Shown here one piece after another: positions 46,424 through 52,169 of a DNA stretch of 64,000 nucleotides (positions within the stretch are counted from its first letter, which is position 1; every line of letters begins with the position of its first letter). The translations under genes and the position numbers were made by a program. The notes under the pieces were generated by a model that saw nothing but the letters and a program-made list of their open reading frames with translations, ran no database searches and was not told where the DNA came from. Origin of the DNA: an uncultured archaeon. GTDB lineage: Archaea > Thermoproteota > Nitrososphaeria_A > Caldarchaeales > Wolframiiraptoraceae. The stretch spans positions 64,001 to 128,000 of the forward strand of contig CALKCF010000002.1 in NCBI GenBank assembly GCA_938083505.1, in the 5' to 3' direction.

Positions 46424-47821
46424 ATGAGACCGGTCATCCTCGACTCAACGTTACGCGAGGGGCAACTTTATAGGATATTTAGTCGTGAAGTCAACAAACA
46501 GATAGCCGTTCAGCTGGCAGAGATAAACATTCCAAGGATAGAGCTAACGGTCGATTATCCACCTAGGACCACATATGAGGATGTTGCATGCATCGTAGAT
46601 GCATTGGGTTCTTACGACGTGGAGATCGTGATGCACGGCAGGGCTTACCAGAGGGATATAGAGGCAATGAGCAAGTACGACATAGATGGTTGTGCCCTTT
46701 ACCTTGCACCGACGGACATTCATAGAGAGTACAAGCTTGGCGGCATATCTTATGAGGATGCTGTACGGAGGATGGAAGAATCGATAGAATTGGCAAAATC
46801 ATTTGGCTTCAAGTACATAAGAGCAACAGTTGAGGATGCAAGTAGGTTTTACTTAGAAGGCCAAGCCGGTATGGAAAAACTTTTAAAACTTATTGACTTA
46901 TTGGGTGATGTTGGTGCAAGTTTAGTAAGCGTACCGGATACAGCCGGCATGTTATCTCCGACTCAAGCCAAAGACTTCGTGTCAAAGATAAAGAAAAAAT
47001 GCAAGACCCCAATATCGTGTCATTTCCACAACGACTATGGTTATGCTTCAGCGAACACGGTCGAGGCAGTAGCCGAAGGTGCTGATGAGGCGCATGTATG
47101 TATACTTGGAATCGGTGATAGAAATGGAATAGCGGATCTTTACGAAGTCATTGCAGGGTTAGAAGATCTATACAACATAAACACAGGTGTGAGGCGCGAG
47201 GCTATTTCTAAGCTCTATGAAAAATTTTCAAAGCTTACAGGCATAAGACCCTACTTTTCCCATCCACTTTCGAAAGAAGCCAGAACTGTCAGGGCAGGTG
47301 TGCATCAATCCATGGTCATTAAGATGCCGAAGGGTTATGTCCCTGAAAAGAAGCTGATATATGACTTTAACGGAAGTCTTATATTTGAAGCTACTCCTTA
47401 CTTGAGTCATAAAATTGTTGAAAGGCTACTGTCGAAGTATGGAGTTAAGGACGATGAGGTGAGAAAGATTACAGAGATTCTCGCCTACAGCGCAAGTAGC
47501 AAAGGAAGAAAGCTCCTACCGTCAGAAGTTAGGGAGATCCTATTGAACGCTGGCATATCAGTCAGCATGGAAGAAATCTCGAACATGTTCGGAACCGAGA
47601 GCGCCTACATCCTGATAAGGCTGAAGCCCCAGTTCCCGGCATCAAAGATAATAAGCGAGCTTATAACATGGGATGATGTAGAAAGTATCGACGAAGTTTA
47701 TGGCGATGTGGATATGATAATAAAGGCGAAAGTGTTGTCAGGTGATGATAACGTGGTGTCCCGTCTTAAGAAGACTTTTTCCGGGGTTGTCGAAGACGTT
47801 AGGGTACTAATCACCGACTAA
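46424..47821 (+). CDS. Homocitrate/2-isopropylmalate synthase family with C-terminal Lrp-type RAM domain
   Basis: DSTLREG, PDTAG, HFHNDYG, GIGDRNG, AGVHQ; C-terminal EVYGDVD as in Sulfolobales-type homocitrate synthase. Confidence 0.8.
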   Translation: MRPVILDSTLREGQLYRIFSREVNKQIAVQLAEINIPRIELTVDYPPRTTYEDVACIVDALGSYDVEIVMHGRAYQRDIEAMSKYDIDGCALYLAPTDIHREYKLGGISYEDAVRRMEESIELAKSFGFKYIRATVEDASRFYLEGQAGMEKLLKLIDLLGDVGASLVSVPDTAGMLSPTQAKDFVSKIKKKCKTPISCHFHNDYGYASANTVEAVAEGADEAHVCILGIGDRNGIADLYEVIAGLEDLYNINTGVRREAISKLYEKFSKLTGIRPYFSHPLSKEARTVRAGVHQSMVIKMPKGYVPEKKLIYDFNGSLIFEATPYLSHKIVERLLSKYGVKDDEVRKITEILAYSASSKGRKLLPSEVREILLNAGISVSMEEISNMFGTESAYILIRLKPQFPASKIISELITWDDVESIDEVYGDVDMIIKAKVLSGDDNVVSRLKKTFSGVVEDVRVLITD

Positions 47822-48626
47822 CGAGTCCCCCGATGTATTCTTTGATAACTTCCGCAGTAGTTAAACCTCTGAAGACCTTGACTATGTTTCCGTCTTCATC
47901 CATTAATACTAGGTGCGGATACCCAGTTGCTCCAAAAGCATTAAGAAGCCTATATTCAGGGTCCATTCCTGTCTGCCAAGAGACGCCGTGTGCCTCGTTA
48001 AACGAAACGACATCTTCAACCGTCACTCTAATGTCTGCGCATACAGATAACACGTTGATTATATCACCATAATTTTCCACGATCTTCTTTAATTCATAGG
48101 CCTGCATGCTACAGTATTTACACCAAGGCGACATCAATTCTAACAGTAAGGGCTTACCCTTAAAATTCGATAGAGTTATAACCTCACCGTTTAAGAGCTC
48201 AAACTCCACGTGAAGGTATTGTCGTTCATTTGGATGTATGATAAGTCCTAACTCACCACCGATGTACGCCGTCGCGACCACACTTACAATACCGGTGAGC
48301 GAAACAATTAACGATATACTCACAATCTGCTTTAGTTTGGTTTGAAAAGCCTCTTTTTTAGAGACATAAAACAATAGGAGTAAAATACCTAGAGCTAGCG
48401 TTGGAGCTAAAAAACTTAGGTTAACCTCTAGCCCTCCAAGTTTCGCATAGTATCCTAAAAGGTTAACAAGTACAGGACTGCAAAGACAGTCAAGGCCAGA
48501 CTCTTTCGCTGCAAGGTTCGGAACACCCACTATTGCCGCCAATATGCCGGACACAGACCATAGAACAAACACCACAAACAGCCCTAAGATTAACTTAACT
48601 AAAAACTGACTCTTTACATTCTTCAT
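47811..48626 (-). CDS. Membrane-anchored TlpA/thioredoxin-like protein
   Basis: About three N-terminal TM segments, then LSNFKGKP, PWCKYC, GYPHLV.MD..G. Confidence 0.8.
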   Translation of the reverse strand: MKNVKSQFLVKLILGLFVVFVLWSVSGILAAIVGVPNLAAKESGLDCLCSPVLVNLLGYYAKLGGLEVNLSFLAPTLALGILLLLFYVSKKEAFQTKLKQIVSISLIVSLTGIVSVVATAYIGGELGLIIHPNERQYLHVEFELLNGEVITLSNFKGKPLLLELMSPWCKYCSMQAYELKKIVENYGDIINVLSVCADIRVTVEDVVSFNEAHGVSWQTGMDPEYRLLNAFGATGYPHLVLMDEDGNIVKVFRGLTTAEVIKEYIGGLVSR

Positions 48627-48699
48627 AAAAGCCTCCCCCTTCTTTAATGCCAACCCAAAAATATATAAGATCTCTAGTTCAGTAATTAAGATTTTTCCA

Positions 48700-50796
48700 T
48701 CAATCTGTAAGCTCGTAAATGTATACGTATGCATAACTCCTATATGGAGGGCTGGACGAATAGATGAGCTTGAAACCACTTACGTTAGGCTCCTCGTAAT
48801 AATGTGTAACAGCACCACTTTCTGTGCGTGGTTTGTAAGGTATAAGTTGACCGAGTAATGTTTCCTTCCAAAACCTATCCGTAGCGCCCACGGTTAGTGG
48901 TTTTGTTGGGTCATAGTAGTCTCTTTCGCTGAAGCGCTCTATACCGAGCTTTTGTGCTTCTTGATTTGCTATTCTTAGCATCCAGACCCATTTTCCCTCG
49001 TCACCGTAACCAAGCAACCTTGGTAAATATGTGCCAGCATATGACACAACTTCGTGCGTTACGAATATTAAAACATGAGTTACACCATATTGCCTCAGTA
49101 TCTGAGCAGCCTTTTCAGGCGGCGACATGAATGCAAGTGCCAAAACCCCAATCTGCGTACTATTCGTTGTTGAGTTATCGGCAAGCGTGGTCTTGTTTCC
49201 CATTACGGTAATCCAATAACCATAGTCCCACCATGCAGCAACGACTGCGTTGTCTGGAAGATTGTCTCTCATCCATGAGAGTGCGTTTATCCAGTCAGGT
49301 ATGTTTGCCGCAACCGGTAACGTGCTTTGTATCACCGTAGGAGGAACGTATGCCTGGTCTATTGGTGATAATCTCGGTAAGCTTCTACCAATAAGAAAAG
49401 AGGGTGCTAACGGAGCTGTCAACATCAACACAACAAGCAGGGGCGTCACAATCGCGTATTCTATCGGAACTCTTTCTCCTTTTCTCATTTTAACTCTGCT
49501 TGTTATTACGTTCCCAAACGAGTCAAATATTCTACCGATAGCGTATCCAGAAGTTATTGCAATGAACGGTGCAGCTAGCGCAGATAACCTAACCATAGAT
49601 GCCGCGAAGTATACACTAAAGATGGTAAGAACAGATATGAATATTGCTTCATCGGTTCCTTTCTTTAATAGATAATAAATTCCCACAGGAACGAATACCA
49701 AGAAGAACCCTAAATCCATGAACATCGTTGTCCACGTACCTAACTGGTTCTCCGCAACAGATACTAGAATAGGTAATTCGCCTCTCATACCCGGCAGTAC
49801 TGTTGAAAGGAACTTAGTAGCCGGAAGTGCGGCCAAGATACCGAGCGATACCAACAGAACTATTGTCGTAATCCTGGGCACGAAACTCCTTAGGAATTTA
49901 TTGCCGAAGTTGCTCGAGAGTTCGAAGACTACGAGTAGAAAAAGGACCACCAGCCCACTTATTATAGTTATGTCATTTAAGTAACCTACACCACCTAACT
50001 TAGGGACGGATGTTGCTATCGTCGATGCTAAACCAAATGTTATCGAGTAAGACACTAGAAGTTCTCTTCTATACCGCCCTATGAATGAAAGCAACAACGT
50101 TATTATGTGTATAAACATGAACGGGAATTTATGAGCACCCCAGCATGTCGCAACGTATCCTAAGAAGAGGCCAGATAGGACAGAAAATATAATCACATGT
50201 TTGAGGCTCTTCCCCTTTTTGATGGCATAAACATACATGAGAAAACTTATCAGCATAAATGGTATGGAAATGCTCTCGTCATCGAACCAGCCTGCATGTG
50301 TCCTGCTTATGTTTGCATTGCTTATCGCTAAGGCGAACGCTGCCAATAGACCGGTTGATTTCCCACCAACCTCTTTACCTAGGAAATAAACTACGAGTAC
50401 AGCTACCACAGACATTATCGCAGGGAAGATGACGGCCAGTTCCAAAAGGTCGACATGTATACCTATTGATGATAAGGAGAGATAGATGAACGCCAGCAAG
50501 AAAGGAAGTCCTGGGTAGAAAGTCTTACTTACAAACTGTCCATAAGGATACCAACGTTCCGTATCTATCCAAGAGAAATACTCAACAAAGCCTGACCATC
50601 CTCTTTCGACGATAAATTCTGCTTGGCGGAACTGCATCCATGGATCAAACTCTGACAAAAGAGTACCCCACCTGATCGGCAGCATCCTGATAGTGAATGC
50701 AATTACCAAAATAGACATCATAGCTGCGATCTCTAGGACGATAGGTTTAAACGTGAGAAATGAACGGATACTGCTTTTAATTTCCATAAACTTCAC
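48700..50796 (-). CDS. aglB: Oligosaccharyltransferase catalytic subunit AglB/STT3
   Basis: EFDPW, WYPYG, GWFDDE, SVAENQ, WWDYGY, DNSTTN, DEGKWVWMLRIA. Confidence 0.93.
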   Translation of the reverse strand: MKFMEIKSSIRSFLTFKPIVLEIAAMMSILVIAFTIRMLPIRWGTLLSEFDPWMQFRQAEFIVERGWSGFVEYFSWIDTERWYPYGQFVSKTFYPGLPFLLAFIYLSLSSIGIHVDLLELAVIFPAIMSVVAVLVVYFLGKEVGGKSTGLLAAFALAISNANISRTHAGWFDDESISIPFMLISFLMYVYAIKKGKSLKHVIIFSVLSGLFLGYVATCWGAHKFPFMFIHIITLLLSFIGRYRRELLVSYSITFGLASTIATSVPKLGGVGYLNDITIISGLVVLFLLVVFELSSNFGNKFLRSFVPRITTIVLLVSLGILAALPATKFLSTVLPGMRGELPILVSVAENQLGTWTTMFMDLGFFLVFVPVGIYYLLKKGTDEAIFISVLTIFSVYFAASMVRLSALAAPFIAITSGYAIGRIFDSFGNVITSRVKMRKGERVPIEYAIVTPLLVVLMLTAPLAPSFLIGRSLPRLSPIDQAYVPPTVIQSTLPVAANIPDWINALSWMRDNLPDNAVVAAWWDYGYWITVMGNKTTLADNSTTNSTQIGVLALAFMSPPEKAAQILRQYGVTHVLIFVTHEVVSYAGTYLPRLLGYGDEGKWVWMLRIANQEAQKLGIERFSERDYYDPTKPLTVGATDRFWKETLLGQLIPYKPRTESGAVTHYYEEPNVSGFKLIYSSSPPYRSYAYVYIYELTD

Positions 50797-50801
50797 TCAC
50801 C

Positions 50802-50957
50802 TTACTTTAAAATCCTAATGTTTTGGACGGACGGTTTAAGAATCTTCCCACATTTAGGACAGACGCCGGAATACTCCCGAACTACCTCATCAGGTGTCTT
50901 TAATTCATTACCTTCGTACAGCACGTAACCGCAGTGTCCGCAAGTTATTATCAACAA
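50802..50957 (-). CDS. 51-aa zinc-ribbon microprotein; absent from the ORF track
   Basis: MLIITCGHCGYVLYEGNELKTPDEVVREYSGVCPKCGKILKPSVQNIRILK*; TTG start with GGTGG RBS; ends 5 nt before aglB. Confidence 0.8.
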   Translation of the reverse strand: MLIITCGHCGYVLYEGNELKTPDEVVREYSGVCPKCGKILKPSVQNIRILK

Positions 50958-51089
50958 GCCGACCACCGAGTTAATCATCAAAAATGTTTGTTAACGAGTT
51001 TTATATAGCTTTAGGAATCTTTAAAAACAACTGTAAATTAATTAATATAAACAAATTTCGATCATGTGACACTAAAACGGTGTTAGCGA

Positions 51090-51497
51090 ATGAAAAGAAA
51101 GTTGGAGGAACTTTACAACCGTTTTGTCGAATCATTTAATAAGTTCATTTCAGCAAGAGAGTTCAAGGTAGGTCTTCCATTAGCTGTTGCTTTGCTTGTA
51201 ATAATTCTTATGGGCGGGCTTCTATACTGTATCTCGAACCCGACCGTAGGCCCAGTGATATTCATAGAAGGTGTAGCCCGTGTTTTTATTCCTGACTATA
51301 TGATGCAAACTTCGGGTGAACTATTCGTCATGTTTACATACTACCTCATGGCCTTAATCGGCGTCATGCTTTACATCATGGCAGGAAGAGAGAGCTCTTT
51401 AGGTAGGAAGACAAAATACATGTATATCTTTAGTTTCATACTTTTGCTGATAGCATTCGTCGGTATACTATTAGCTCTACAGGCAAAAATTGGATAA
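51090..51497 (+). CDS. 3-TM protein resembling OSTC/DC2 and the OST3/OST6 membrane domain
   Basis: TM1 ending GGLLY, loop with QTSGE, TM2 with G, TM3 followed by terminal K; divergent from aglB. Confidence 0.6.
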   Translation: MKRKLEELYNRFVESFNKFISAREFKVGLPLAVALLVIILMGGLLYCISNPTVGPVIFIEGVARVFIPDYMMQTSGELFVMFTYYLMALIGVMLYIMAGRESSLGRKTKYMYIFSFILLLIAFVGILLALQAKIG

Positions 51498-52169
51498 TCA
51501 GCCTACGGCCTCTATGCCCACATTCGTTATCTTAAACCTTTGCTCAAAAGGCGGCCCGCCCTTTTCAACCTTTAGGACCTTGATACCCATGGGAGAGTTC
51601 TCAAGTCTAAATATGACGTCGGACCAATATCTGACTATCCTAGACGCCACAGGTTTTATGCCCAAACCAGGTACTTCGTGAGTTTGTCCTACTATGATTA
51701 TTGGTATACCGTTCGTGAGGGCGACTTCTTTGAGTGAGGCCGTCTGAAACGTCAACCTTTTGAATATGGGCGCATCCTCCTTCACTTCTCCCTTCATTGC
51801 TATCCTGTGTAGGTATGTGTAATCATCAAGCACTATTAACCTCGTACTAGGTGATGTGCCTTCCAGTAAGCTTATAATCGTTGCTTCCTGCTCATCAAAA
51901 TCCTTAACGGGTGTGAGCATAAGCTTGGAAGCATCTACCCTGTTTGTAGAAAGTACTTGTAAGAGTCTTTTAACATGTATTCTTTCTCCACAATCTACCC
52001 ATACGACCTTACCACCAAGTTTGATGGTGTTTGCAGCTGCTAAAAGTGCGAGGCTCGTTTTGCCACTTTTCTCCTCACCATAGATAAAGTGAAGCACACC
52101 ACCTACGTAGCCACCTATGGCTAGGTCGAGTTTTGGCAGGCCAGTAGGGATGCGCATCATTCTCTGCAA
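51498..52169 (-). CDS. radB: DNA repair protein RadB-like RecA-family ATPase
   Basis: IPTG...LD, GEEKSGKT, IVLDD, YWSDV; no N-terminal HhH domain. Confidence 0.75.
   Translation of the reverse strand: MQRMMRIPTGLPKLDLAIGGYVGGVLHFIYGEEKSGKTSLALLAAANTIKLGGKVVWVDCGERIHVKRLLQVLSTNRVDASKLMLTPVKDFDEQEATIISLLEGTSPSTRLIVLDDYTYLHRIAMKGEVKEDAPIFKRLTFQTASLKEVALTNGIPIIIVGQTHEVPGLGIKPVASRIVRYWSDVIFRLENSPMGIKVLKVEKGGPPFEQRFKITNVGIEAVG

Follow-up and report, generated by a model that had tools for sequence, protein, structure and literature searches.

Sequence and modelling evidence for a probable DC2/OST3-like partner of the oligosaccharyltransferase AglB at an ancestral-looking archaeal locus

The oligosaccharyltransferases (OSTs) of archaea and bacteria are, in the textbook view, single-subunit enzymes; the AglB structures solved to date are single-chain, and we know of no AglB subunit demonstrated by experiment. 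How the eight-subunit eukaryotic OST originated is still debated in studies of eukaryogenesis. A locus of the hot-spring archaeon Candidatus Terraquivivens (Aigarchaeota-type Nitrososphaerota; genome of 1.15 Mb, 98.5% complete), lying within a 64,000-nt stretch of DNA that we refer to as the window, raises the question of whether AglB has partners in this lineage. The original prediction pointed to a 135-amino acid (aa) membrane protein and a CxxC thioredoxin encoded on either side of aglB and read them as the two halves of OST3/OST6 before their fusion. All the sequence features that it described in the three genes are present (Table 1), and the locus is arranged as a DC2-like gene divergent to a 58-aa zinc-ribbon gene, which is followed by aglB. 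On balance, we consider it probable that this is an ancestral-looking TACK locus, in which the 135-aa protein is a homolog of the OST3/OST6 transmembrane (TM) part that sits on AglB within a small multi-subunit OST, and in which the thioredoxin is not an OST3/OST6 half.

Table 1. Features of the aglB locus, with positions numbered along the window
Feature	Position	Strand	Basis
aglB, catalytic oligosaccharyltransferase (STT3 family), 698 aa, eukaryote/TACK-like type	48700..50796	-	PF02516 match and motifs
DC2/OSTC-like small membrane protein (putative OST3/OST6 TM-domain homolog), 135 aa	51090..51497	+	Profile, fold, complex model, synteny
58-aa zinc-ribbon micro-protein gene	50802..50978	-	CxxC...CPxC, 'LYEGNEL'
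Divergent AT-rich intergenic region, 108 nt	50982..51089		TATA-like runs
Membrane-anchored ResA/TlpA-type thiol-disulfide oxidoreductase, 271 aa	47811..48626	-	Redoxin match, WCKYC, predicted topology

AglB matched the STT3 family PF02516 (3.3e-40, 139 bits) as well as the AglB core domains, and was the single STT3 match in its genome. The protein has the N-terminal TM domain, the WWDYG motif (residue 522), the acidic loop and the SVSE/TIXE-type and DK motifs of STT3 proteins, and the eukaryote-like motifs noted earlier (EFDP, SVAE and DxxK..WM.RIA) were confirmed as EFDP at residue 49, SVAE at 346 and DEGKWVWMLRI at 599. A double sequon, NSTTNST, is located at residue 541. The surroundings of this sole OST gene would represent an ancestral TACK arrangement, in which the AT-rich region between the divergent genes is likely, from its sequence, to be the site of two divergent promoters: it contains the TATA-like runs TTTTATATA, CTTTAAAAA and TTAATTAATATAAA, 35–80 nt ahead of the start codon of the DC2-like gene (ATG, 51090).

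The 135-aa open reading frame encodes three hydrophobic helices (hydropathy windows 27–45, 78–96 and 112–130), and the GGxxY/QxxxE/terminal-lysine spacing for which this divergent gene had been singled out corresponds to GGLLY at residue 42, QTSGE at 73 and K133. Because the key residues are kept across 17–20 homologs with identities down to 26% (G43, E77 and K133 invariant, Q73 nearly invariant), the spacing can be regarded as a signature of the family that did not arise by chance. Family members are found across Thermoproteota as open frames of approximately 119–200 aa; a search with one sequence through 1.84 billion representative proteins returned 15 relatives, none usefully named, and a precomputed PF04756 label was present on one relative. 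Profile searches revealed PF04756 as the top family for 18 of the 20 members, with a best E-value of 7.6e-6. Relatives scored 16–26 bits (E-values between 7.6e-6 and 8e-3), all under the 27-bit gathering score, and the 135-aa protein itself reached 7.6 bits (E = 3; residues 63–129 aligned to profile positions 218–283). Ten relatives were collinear with the profile, aligning residues approximately 18–139 to positions approximately 174–288 of 294. When a profile of the 135-aa family was searched against solved-structure sequences, neither OSTC nor Ost3 chains came up at E ≤ 10, and the matches were chance TM matches only. The counts of lysine plus arginine (seven in the N-terminal tail, one in loop 46–77 and four in loop 97–111) predict an inside N terminus, with the C terminus and the long first loop outside, a topology that fits OST3_OST6 and OSTC/DC2 proteins.

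The AlphaFold2 model of the 135-aa protein, built without a template, had a pLDDT of 81.5. The Foldseek comparison that had been proposed as a check placed OST chains in all six best positions (6s7o_H, 9n9j_J, 8b6l_J, 8pn9_H, 6s7t_H and 7oci_C; TM-scores 0.47–0.76). VIA-align against 48,161 representative chains ranked 6s7t_H (Z 11.4, 2.8 Å over 103 residues), 6s7o_H (Z 11.0, rmsd 2.9 Å over 104 residues) and 7oci_C (Z 8.7) as its top three, compared with 7.4 for 6c26_3 and 8.1 for the best unrelated chain; small three-helix membrane folds easily give middling Z scores, and helical bundles below about Z 13 are possibly generic. The best fold matches were thus human MagT1, human DC2 and yeast Ost6, and the modelled three-helix fold is superimposable on DC2 and on TM2–4 of MagT1, Ost6 and Ost3. 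In yeast Ost3/Ost6 and human MagT1/TUSC3, the part homologous to the 135-aa protein would be the last three TM helices (PF04756 positions approximately 180–288 of 294, 6s7t_H residues 215–326 and 7oci_C residues 214–326), whereas their N-terminal luminal CxxC thioredoxin domain, which defines OST3/OST6 proper, and their first TM helix are absent from the archaeal protein. Human and metazoan DC2 (OSTC), the STT3A-specific subunit of OST-A (6S7O chain H, 8PN9 chain H and 8B6L chain J), likewise consists of three TM helices without a soluble domain and, at about 149 aa, is similar in size. The agreement in fold (Z 11.0, TM-score up to 0.76) is accompanied by a sequence identity of just 13–16%. 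DC2 tethers OST-A to Sec61 (PMC5674889); here, the host is an archaeon without an endoplasmic reticulum, and the gene is paired on the chromosome with the catalytic gene. Taken together, the profile matches and the modelled fold support a remote homology between the 135-aa protein and the membrane portion of OST3/OST6 (MagT1/TUSC3), the portion represented by DC2/OSTC.

A complex model of AglB with the 135-aa protein scored 0.82 in all three runs, compared with 0.00 for the best of three controls; among solved complexes, 58 of 80 attain the pass mark of this score, and among mismatched pairs, 2 of 110 do so. At least 94% of the contacts were common to the runs and the pLDDT of the partner was at least 81. 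The model thereby supports DC2-like docking on AglB, the outcome anticipated for it. The modelled contact residues of AglB (351–378, 388–402 and 443–458) coincide with its hydrophobic windows 359–377, 384–402 and 449–467, and the interface corresponds to the site where Ost3 contacts Stt3, namely TMH10, 11 and 13 (PMC7226087), although the pass may reflect memory of solved eukaryotic OST structures. The equivalent helices also carry the modelled site when the comparison is made with DC2. On the strength of the model, the 135-aa protein probably sits on AglB, most likely at helices 10, 11 and 13, beside external loop 5 and the entry for the lipid-linked oligosaccharide, in a binding mode resembling that of Ost3 and DC2 on Stt3. 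Its likely role would be to stabilize or tune AglB, possibly with a link to the Sec translocon; any effect on glycosylation is inferred.

The gene neighbourhood points in the same direction. The DC2-like family is single-copy in 70 of the 76 genomes of the class, and in 30 of the 67 class genomes that have both genes, representing all four families, the DC2-like gene lies within 5 kb of aglB and divergent to it; in approximately half of the class (seven genera) the two are unlinked. Among the matches listed, the DC2-like gene is divergent to aglB or a few kilobases away in many Thermoproteota families, with the pairing extending outside the class, including to Bathyarchaeia. Conserved adjacency to aglB, which had been expected of both flanking genes, therefore stood for the DC2-like gene in many families and failed for the thioredoxin, which adjoins aglB in seven genomes of one genus. 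A radB-like gene is the other neighbour of the DC2-like gene and is equally conserved, without an obvious functional link. In another genus, a 572-aa protein with two TM segments is encoded between aglB and the DC2-like gene; considered as a candidate Ost1, it gave no Ribophorin_I match.

Further OST subunits were sought in the same genome, as the original prediction had suggested for ribophorin I and OST48. A ribophorin I (Ost1)-like gene was identified outside the window (L033:859-2493, minus strand), matching PF04597 with 36.6 bits, above the cut-off of 25. Its product aligns residues 222–331 to profile positions 246–365, a partial coverage, and shows a hydrophobic N-terminal segment, a hydrophobic stretch at approximately 375–395 and a charged, helical C-terminal tail, in line with the luminal domain, one TM helix and cytoplasmic tail expected of ribophorin I. 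The other half of that search found no match to OST48 (PF03345), nor to DAD1 (PF02109), at E ≤ 10. Rather than working alone, AglB would probably form a small OST of several subunits with the DC2-like protein and the Ost1-like protein encoded elsewhere.

Downstream of aglB, the open reading frame listed as 47811-48779 counts from a GTG further upstream and overlaps aglB; the thioredoxin gene more likely starts at the ATG at 48626 (271 aa), with GGGGGAGG just ahead. The resulting 73-nt gap to aglB contains a TATA-like box and a Shine–Dalgarno-like site, and the gene may therefore have its own promoter. As described beforehand, the product is a membrane-anchored thioredoxin with WCKYC (residue 169) and an extra CLC (residue 47), both invariant in four same-genus orthologs. 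Hydropathy and the positive-inside rule predict three N-terminal TM helices, an outward CLC loop and then an outward thioredoxin domain, which is the orientation that a split OST3/OST6 requires. The sequence itself belongs to another thioredoxin subfamily. It matched Redoxin PF08534 (42.2 bits, cut-off 26.6), with AhpC-TSA and Thioredoxin_2 also matching, and the ResA subfamily in NCBIfam (2.1e-13, the NCBIfam scores being far under the equivalog cut-offs), and its closest solved relatives by sequence were ResA chains (7e-11); PF04756 gave no match at E ≤ 1, and the solved relatives at E ≤ 0.01 included neither TUSC3 nor Ost6 chains. With a Redoxin/TlpA-like fold, a CxxC motif, a membrane anchor and a predicted outward domain, the protein resembles Bacillus subtilis ResA, Bradyrhizobium TlpA and DsbE/CcmG, but it differs from them in having three N-terminal TM helices and a conserved outward CxC loop instead of a single anchor, and in that its genome yielded no electron donor of the CcdA/DsbD type (PF02683, no match at E ≤ 0.01; control genomes match). 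An AlphaFold2 model from a four-sequence alignment was too poor for use (pLDDT 56.5, TM domain below 50). The one PF04756 match in the genome was a soluble WCAPC thioredoxin encoded on another contig, which aligned to the thioredoxin part of the profile only and was set aside as an OST3/OST6 candidate because control genomes match PF04756 in the same way.

Full-length orthologs of the aglB-linked thioredoxin were restricted to the Terraquivivens genus (seven genomes, 67–77% identity), always downstream of aglB and co-oriented with it, whereas elsewhere among the class genomes the thioredoxin domain alone matched, at 20–34% identity and away from aglB. Because the pairing is limited to one genus while the DC2-like gene is phylum-wide, it is derived and not ancestral. 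A ResA/TlpA-type oxidoreductase could nonetheless have been recruited behind aglB in Terraquivivens and act there as a convergent analogue of the Ost3/Ost6 thioredoxin, holding substrates with cysteines in an unfolded or reduced state close to the OST active site. The retention of the gene in all seven genomes leaves room for such a functional link, as do the invariant CLC and WCKYC motifs and an unusual three-TM anchor that may dock on a membrane complex; the protein is also the sole Redoxin-family match in its genome, where neither a DsbD/CcdA nor a VKOR (PF07884) redox partner was found. We regard this recruitment as unlikely, given that adjacency within one genus may be plain inherited gene order, that the gene may be transcribed from its own promoter and that the structure model is poor. 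We favour the reading in which the thioredoxin, the one extracytoplasmic thiol-disulfide oxidoreductase of ResA/TlpA type in this genome, acquired its place next to aglB within this genus alone and does not represent the half that the DC2-like protein lacks relative to OST3/OST6.

The zinc-ribbon gene invites a broader interpretation. Its stop lies 5 nt ahead of the aglB start, and among the matches listed the family occurs in 310 of 401 Thermoproteota genomes, usually adjoining aglB, the DC2-like gene or both; it also precedes aglB in loci of other families, including Bathyarchaeia. With Pfam, NCBIfam and solved structures as targets, searches of the family returned generic zinc-ribbon noise alone, and its relatives carry the database name 'hypothetical protein'. 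The product may act in the cytoplasm as a partner or as a regulator. Taken further, AglB of Thermoproteota would be a conserved multi-subunit machine of AglB, DC2-like protein, Ost1-like protein and a cytoplasmic zinc ribbon, to which Terraquivivens convergently added the thioredoxin as a supply of Ost3/6-like redox function. The cluster would be centred on the zinc-ribbon gene, which across the phylum would immediately precede aglB, face away from the DC2-like gene, or both, and its product would be a prokaryote-specific subunit or regulator, possibly linking the enzyme to the ribosome or translocon. We hold this full assembly to be improbable as a whole; the roles given to the zinc ribbon and the thioredoxin are inferred.

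Less probable still is a reading of the 135-aa protein as some generic small membrane protein, perhaps associated with the translocon or with lipids, that has no role with AglB. The fold match and the linkage would then go back to a three-helix shape that is common and a gene order that was inherited, in keeping with Pfam scores under the curated cut-off, helical Z scores of 8–11 that are possible by chance, the absence of linkage in approximately half of the class genomes and a radB-like neighbour that is just as conserved. Against this, the three best of all the chains compared belong to the OST3/OST6 family, PF04756 is the sole recurrent family with the same region aligned each time, a divergent arrangement with either aglB or the zinc-ribbon gene ahead of it is seen in several distant families, and the complex model passes while every control scores 0.00. 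Least credible is the original reading of the DC2-like protein and the thioredoxin as unfused halves ancestral to the eukaryotic subunit: aglB is indeed flanked by both genes, with a predicted outward CxxC domain like the luminal one of Ost3/6 and an arrangement kept throughout the genus, but the thioredoxin is of ordinary ResA/TlpA/DsbE type, its three TM helices precede the thioredoxin domain in the opposite order to OST3/OST6, it is no conserved partner of aglB outside one genus, it may have its own promoter, and a search for longer members of the DC2-like family, with a fused domain, found none at E ≤ 0.1 (weak evidence by the tool's own rating).

What survives of the earlier proposal is its DC2/OST3-6-like assignment of the 135-aa protein, borne out by PF04756 matches below the cut-off, the fold, the modelled complex and the conserved linkage; none of the three outcomes that the proposal had named as counting against it was seen for this gene. 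This genomic and modelling evidence suggests that a DC2-type subunit on AglB was already present in the TACK lineage and not just in Asgard archaea. A minimal, thioredoxin-less DC2 form would be the widespread archaeal state, and the thioredoxin domain of OST3/OST6 is more likely a later addition in the eukaryotic line than an inheritance from such a gene pair. OST1 and OST3/6 homologs have been reported from Asgard and TACK archaea (Zaremba-Niedzwiedzka 2017, cited in PMC8993221 and PMC10307638; Carilo et al. 2024, PMC11417166); they are the same kind of gene as those described here, the present genome has both, and our finding is incremental because such homologs in TACK are already published. 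In their passages on these homologs, the surveys (PMC8993221, PMC10307638 and PMC11417166) record presence, with no mention of an aglB pairing, a zinc-ribbon gene or a modelled interface. The new detail is the conserved 58-aa zinc-ribbon gene between the DC2-like gene and aglB, whose product is a testable extra candidate for an OST component.

Four genes form a tight cluster: a zinc-ribbon ORF, aglB and the gene of a thioredoxin-fold membrane protein, all on the minus strand, and the gene of a 135-aa membrane protein on the plus strand. Close homologs belong to Candidatus Terraquivivens (74% identity to one Candidatus Terraquivivens tikiterensis protein), and the window's genome (1.15 Mb, 98.5% complete) gave a single STT3 match. 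Every motif named in the original prediction was present. The likely start of the thioredoxin gene is ATG at 48626 rather than GTG at 48779, which overlaps aglB. The eukaryote-like motifs of AglB were located at EFDP49, SVAE346 and DEGKWVWMLRI599, together with WWDYG522 and the double sequon NSTTNST541, a trait that PMC8993221 describes as common to eukaryotic Stt3 and Asgard/TACK AglB.

Features in and beyond the window (L numbers are excised genomic loci)
Feature	Position	Strand	Remarks
Thioredoxin-fold membrane protein gene	47811-48626	-	73 nt beyond aglB
aglB	48700-50796	-	start 5 nt past zinc-ribbon stop
58-aa zinc-ribbon ORF	50802-50978	-	CxxC...CPxC
135-aa membrane protein gene	51090-51497	+	divergent over 108-nt AT-rich spacer
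RadB-like RecA-family ATPase gene	51498-52169	-	TIGR02237 at 2.9e-29, below the TIGR02237 cut-off
146-aa soluble thioredoxin (WCAPC)	L001:1381-1821 (contig C7, window's genome)	+	PF04756, 31.1 bits
544-aa ribophorin I (Ost1)-like ORF	L033:859-2493 (contig C3, ~72520-74154)	-	far from aglB
572-aa two-TM protein of genus g6	L040:3998-5716 (genome G011)	+	

The 135-aa protein is DC2/OST3-6-like, as originally proposed from its GGxxY, QxxxE and terminal K spacing. Its motifs (GGLLY42, QTSGE73 and K133) are conserved in alignments of 17–20 homologs, which show no variation at G43, E77, G91, Y95, Y110, L118, G125 and K133 and almost none at Q73; because these positions persist down to 26% identity, the spacing represents a family signature. 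The window's own protein matched the Pfam family OST3_OST6 (PF04756) only at E=3; 18 of the 20 family members matched it, and no second Pfam family recurred. Ten relatives aligned collinearly (residues ~18–139 against positions 174–288 of 294) with scores of 16–26 bits, narrowly missing the 27-bit gathering cut-off, and one relative carries a precomputed PF04756 label. For the template-free AlphaFold2 model (pLDDT 81.5), the top six Foldseek matches were all oligosaccharyltransferase (OST) accessory chains, comprising five human entries (6s7o_H, 9n9j_J, 8b6l_J, 8pn9_H and 6s7t_H; rmsd 2.9–3.5 Å) and yeast Ost6p (7oci_C; 5.1 Å). An independent all-against-all structural alignment over 48,161 representative chains ranked 6s7t_H first (residues 215–326, Z 11.4) and 6s7o_H second (residues 28–144, Z 11.0), with 7oci_C (residues 214–326) at Z 8.7 and yeast 6c26_3 at Z 7.4, the top unrelated chain scoring Z 8.1. 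From residue numbering, we take 6s7t_H, 6s7o_H, 7oci_C and 6c26_3 to be MagT1, DC2/OSTC, Ost6 and Ost3, respectively. By hydropathy and the positive-inside rule, the N-terminus is predicted to lie inside, with both the C-terminus and the first loop (32 residues) outside, as in DC2.

PF04756 exceeded its cut-off in the window's genome solely at the soluble 146-aa thioredoxin, where the match spans only the thioredoxin part of the profile (positions 10–104). The profile was also matched in 12 of 14 control genomes, one above the cut-off, presumably likewise via its thioredoxin part. Annotation that relies on PF04756 matches alone risks naming an ordinary thioredoxin OST3/6.

A family profile detected the DC2-like gene as a single copy in 70 of the 76 genomes of the window's class, spanning all 15 genera (g1–g15, with g1 the window's own); STT3 was found in 71 of the 76, and by our count 67 genomes contain both. 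In 22 of these 67 (g1, g7–g10, g12 and g15) the pair is divergent with no gap to another position, each gene directly neighbouring the other; in 8 more, mostly from g6, 2–5 kb separates them. The 30 linked genomes cover all four families of the class. In g2–g5, g11, g13 and g14 there is no linkage. Across the Thermoproteota sample, the family occurs in 174 of 401 genomes (80 of 158 genera), almost always as a single copy of 120–170 aa. Among the matches listed, divergent pairs with aglB occur in several other families, either directly (for example in genomes G114, G139, G097, G104, G146, G090 and G239) or at 3–8 kb; some genomes with divergent pairs are Bathyarchaeia by database name. The pairing recurs well beyond the genus.

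In g6, the gene of the 572-aa protein lies between aglB and the DC2-like gene, co-oriented with the latter. The protein has a signal-like helix at its N-terminus and a TM helix at its C-terminus; considered as a possible Ost1, it gave no Ribophorin_I match, its sole Pfam match being a weak Kelch motif. The radB-like gene converges on the DC2-like gene, the two abutting with 0 intergenic bases, and a C-terminal radB-like ORF likewise flanks the DC2-like gene in loci of other families (L036–L051), a conserved neighbourhood with no obvious functional link.

Modelling of the complex, from a 19-row AglB alignment and a 20-row alignment of the 135-aa protein, agreed with the expected DC2-like docking, scoring 0.82 in all three runs against 0.00 for the best of three controls. 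This passed a mark that 58 of 80 solved complexes reach, as against 2 of 110 mismatched pairs. At least 94% of contacts were common to the runs, and the partner's pLDDT was no lower than 81. The modelled contacts on AglB (residues 351–378, 388–402, 419–430 and 443–458, the first beginning just past the SVAE motif) coincide with hydrophobic windows 359–377, 384–402 and 449–467; in yeast, three Ost3 helices touch Stt3 TMH10, 11 and 13 (PMC7226087). The model supports, rather than demonstrates, binding of AglB by the 135-aa protein; the pass is proof of likeness, not of binding, and may partly reflect memory of solved structures, since eukaryotic OST complexes are among these.

The membrane-anchored thioredoxin downstream of aglB carries the anticipated WCKYC (residue 169) and extra CLC loop (residue 47). 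Its domain was assigned to Redoxin/AhpC-TSA/Thioredoxin_2 by Pfam and is ResA/StoA/DsbE/TlpA-like by NCBIfam; its top solved relatives by sequence were ResA chains (7e-11), with no TUSC3 or Ost6 among solved chains at E≤0.01. The predicted topology comprises three N-terminal helices, with the N-terminus in, the CLC loop out, a KK-rich loop in and the thioredoxin domain out rather than cytoplasmic. The conserved outward CLC loop in the three-TM anchor matched no known family. Full-length matches were confined to the 7 genomes of the genus (67–77% identity), always just downstream of aglB; in all other genera of the class only the thioredoxin domain was matched (20–34% identity), at unrelated places, and different genes follow aglB. 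The proposed adjacency is kept within the genus but absent from the others. The thioredoxin gene may have its own promoter, as the intergenic gap contains a GGGGGAGG site and, ~38 nt upstream of the start codon, TTATATAT. The protein is the sole Redoxin-family (PF08534) match in the window's genome, where searches for DsbD/CcdA and VKOR homologs found none (98.5% completeness). We read it as a housekeeping oxidoreductase, facing outward, whose gene neighbours aglB in one genus; that it became convergently linked in function to glycosylation is possible, if rather improbable. That it and the DC2-like protein are the two halves of a pre-fusion OST3/6 encoded around aglB is very unlikely: the thioredoxin domain is predicted on the correct, outer side, but the order from TM helices to thioredoxin is the reverse of that in OST3/6, the ResA/TlpA-like domain did not match PF04756 at E≤1, and the full-length protein adjoins aglB in a single genus.

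Of the further subunits sought, Ribophorin_I (PF04597) was matched at 36.6 bits (cut-off 25) by the 544-aa ORF, which has a signal/anchor-like hydrophobic N-terminus, one late TM stretch and, at the C-terminus, a tail that is helical and charged, whereas neither OST48 nor DAD1 was matched in the window's genome (98.5% complete). Homology, conserved linkage and modelling support a multi-subunit OST of AglB and the DC2-like protein, with the Ost1-like protein as a further member; the original scheme of two OST3/6 halves is not supported. The Ost1-like and DC2-like genes fit PMC11417166, which places OST1 and OST3/6 in both Asgard and TACK archaea, so that such homologs in TACK are already known; PMC10307638 reports subcomplex-III subunits from Heimdallarchaeia only. 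The new details are the phylum-wide pairing of the DC2-like gene with aglB, the modelled TM10/11/13 interface on AglB and the conserved zinc-ribbon gene.

The zinc-ribbon ORF is not noise: the same protein, with its CxxC...CPxC motif and 'LYEGNEL...PEE' core, is encoded upstream of aglB in distant loci. Neither a curated family nor a solved structure matched it, and its database name is 'hypothetical protein'. A profile search found the family, mostly single-copy, in 310 of 401 Thermoproteota genomes (136 of 158 genera); in the window's class, detection was limited to g1, g14 and g15, plus marginal matches close to the threshold in a single genome each of g4 and g12. Among the matches listed, the gene typically lies directly before aglB and, where aglB is elsewhere, is divergent beside the DC2-like gene (for example in genomes G279, G368, G160, G174, G281, G286 and G384). 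The gene appears to be the cluster's pivot, and its product is a candidate partner or regulator.
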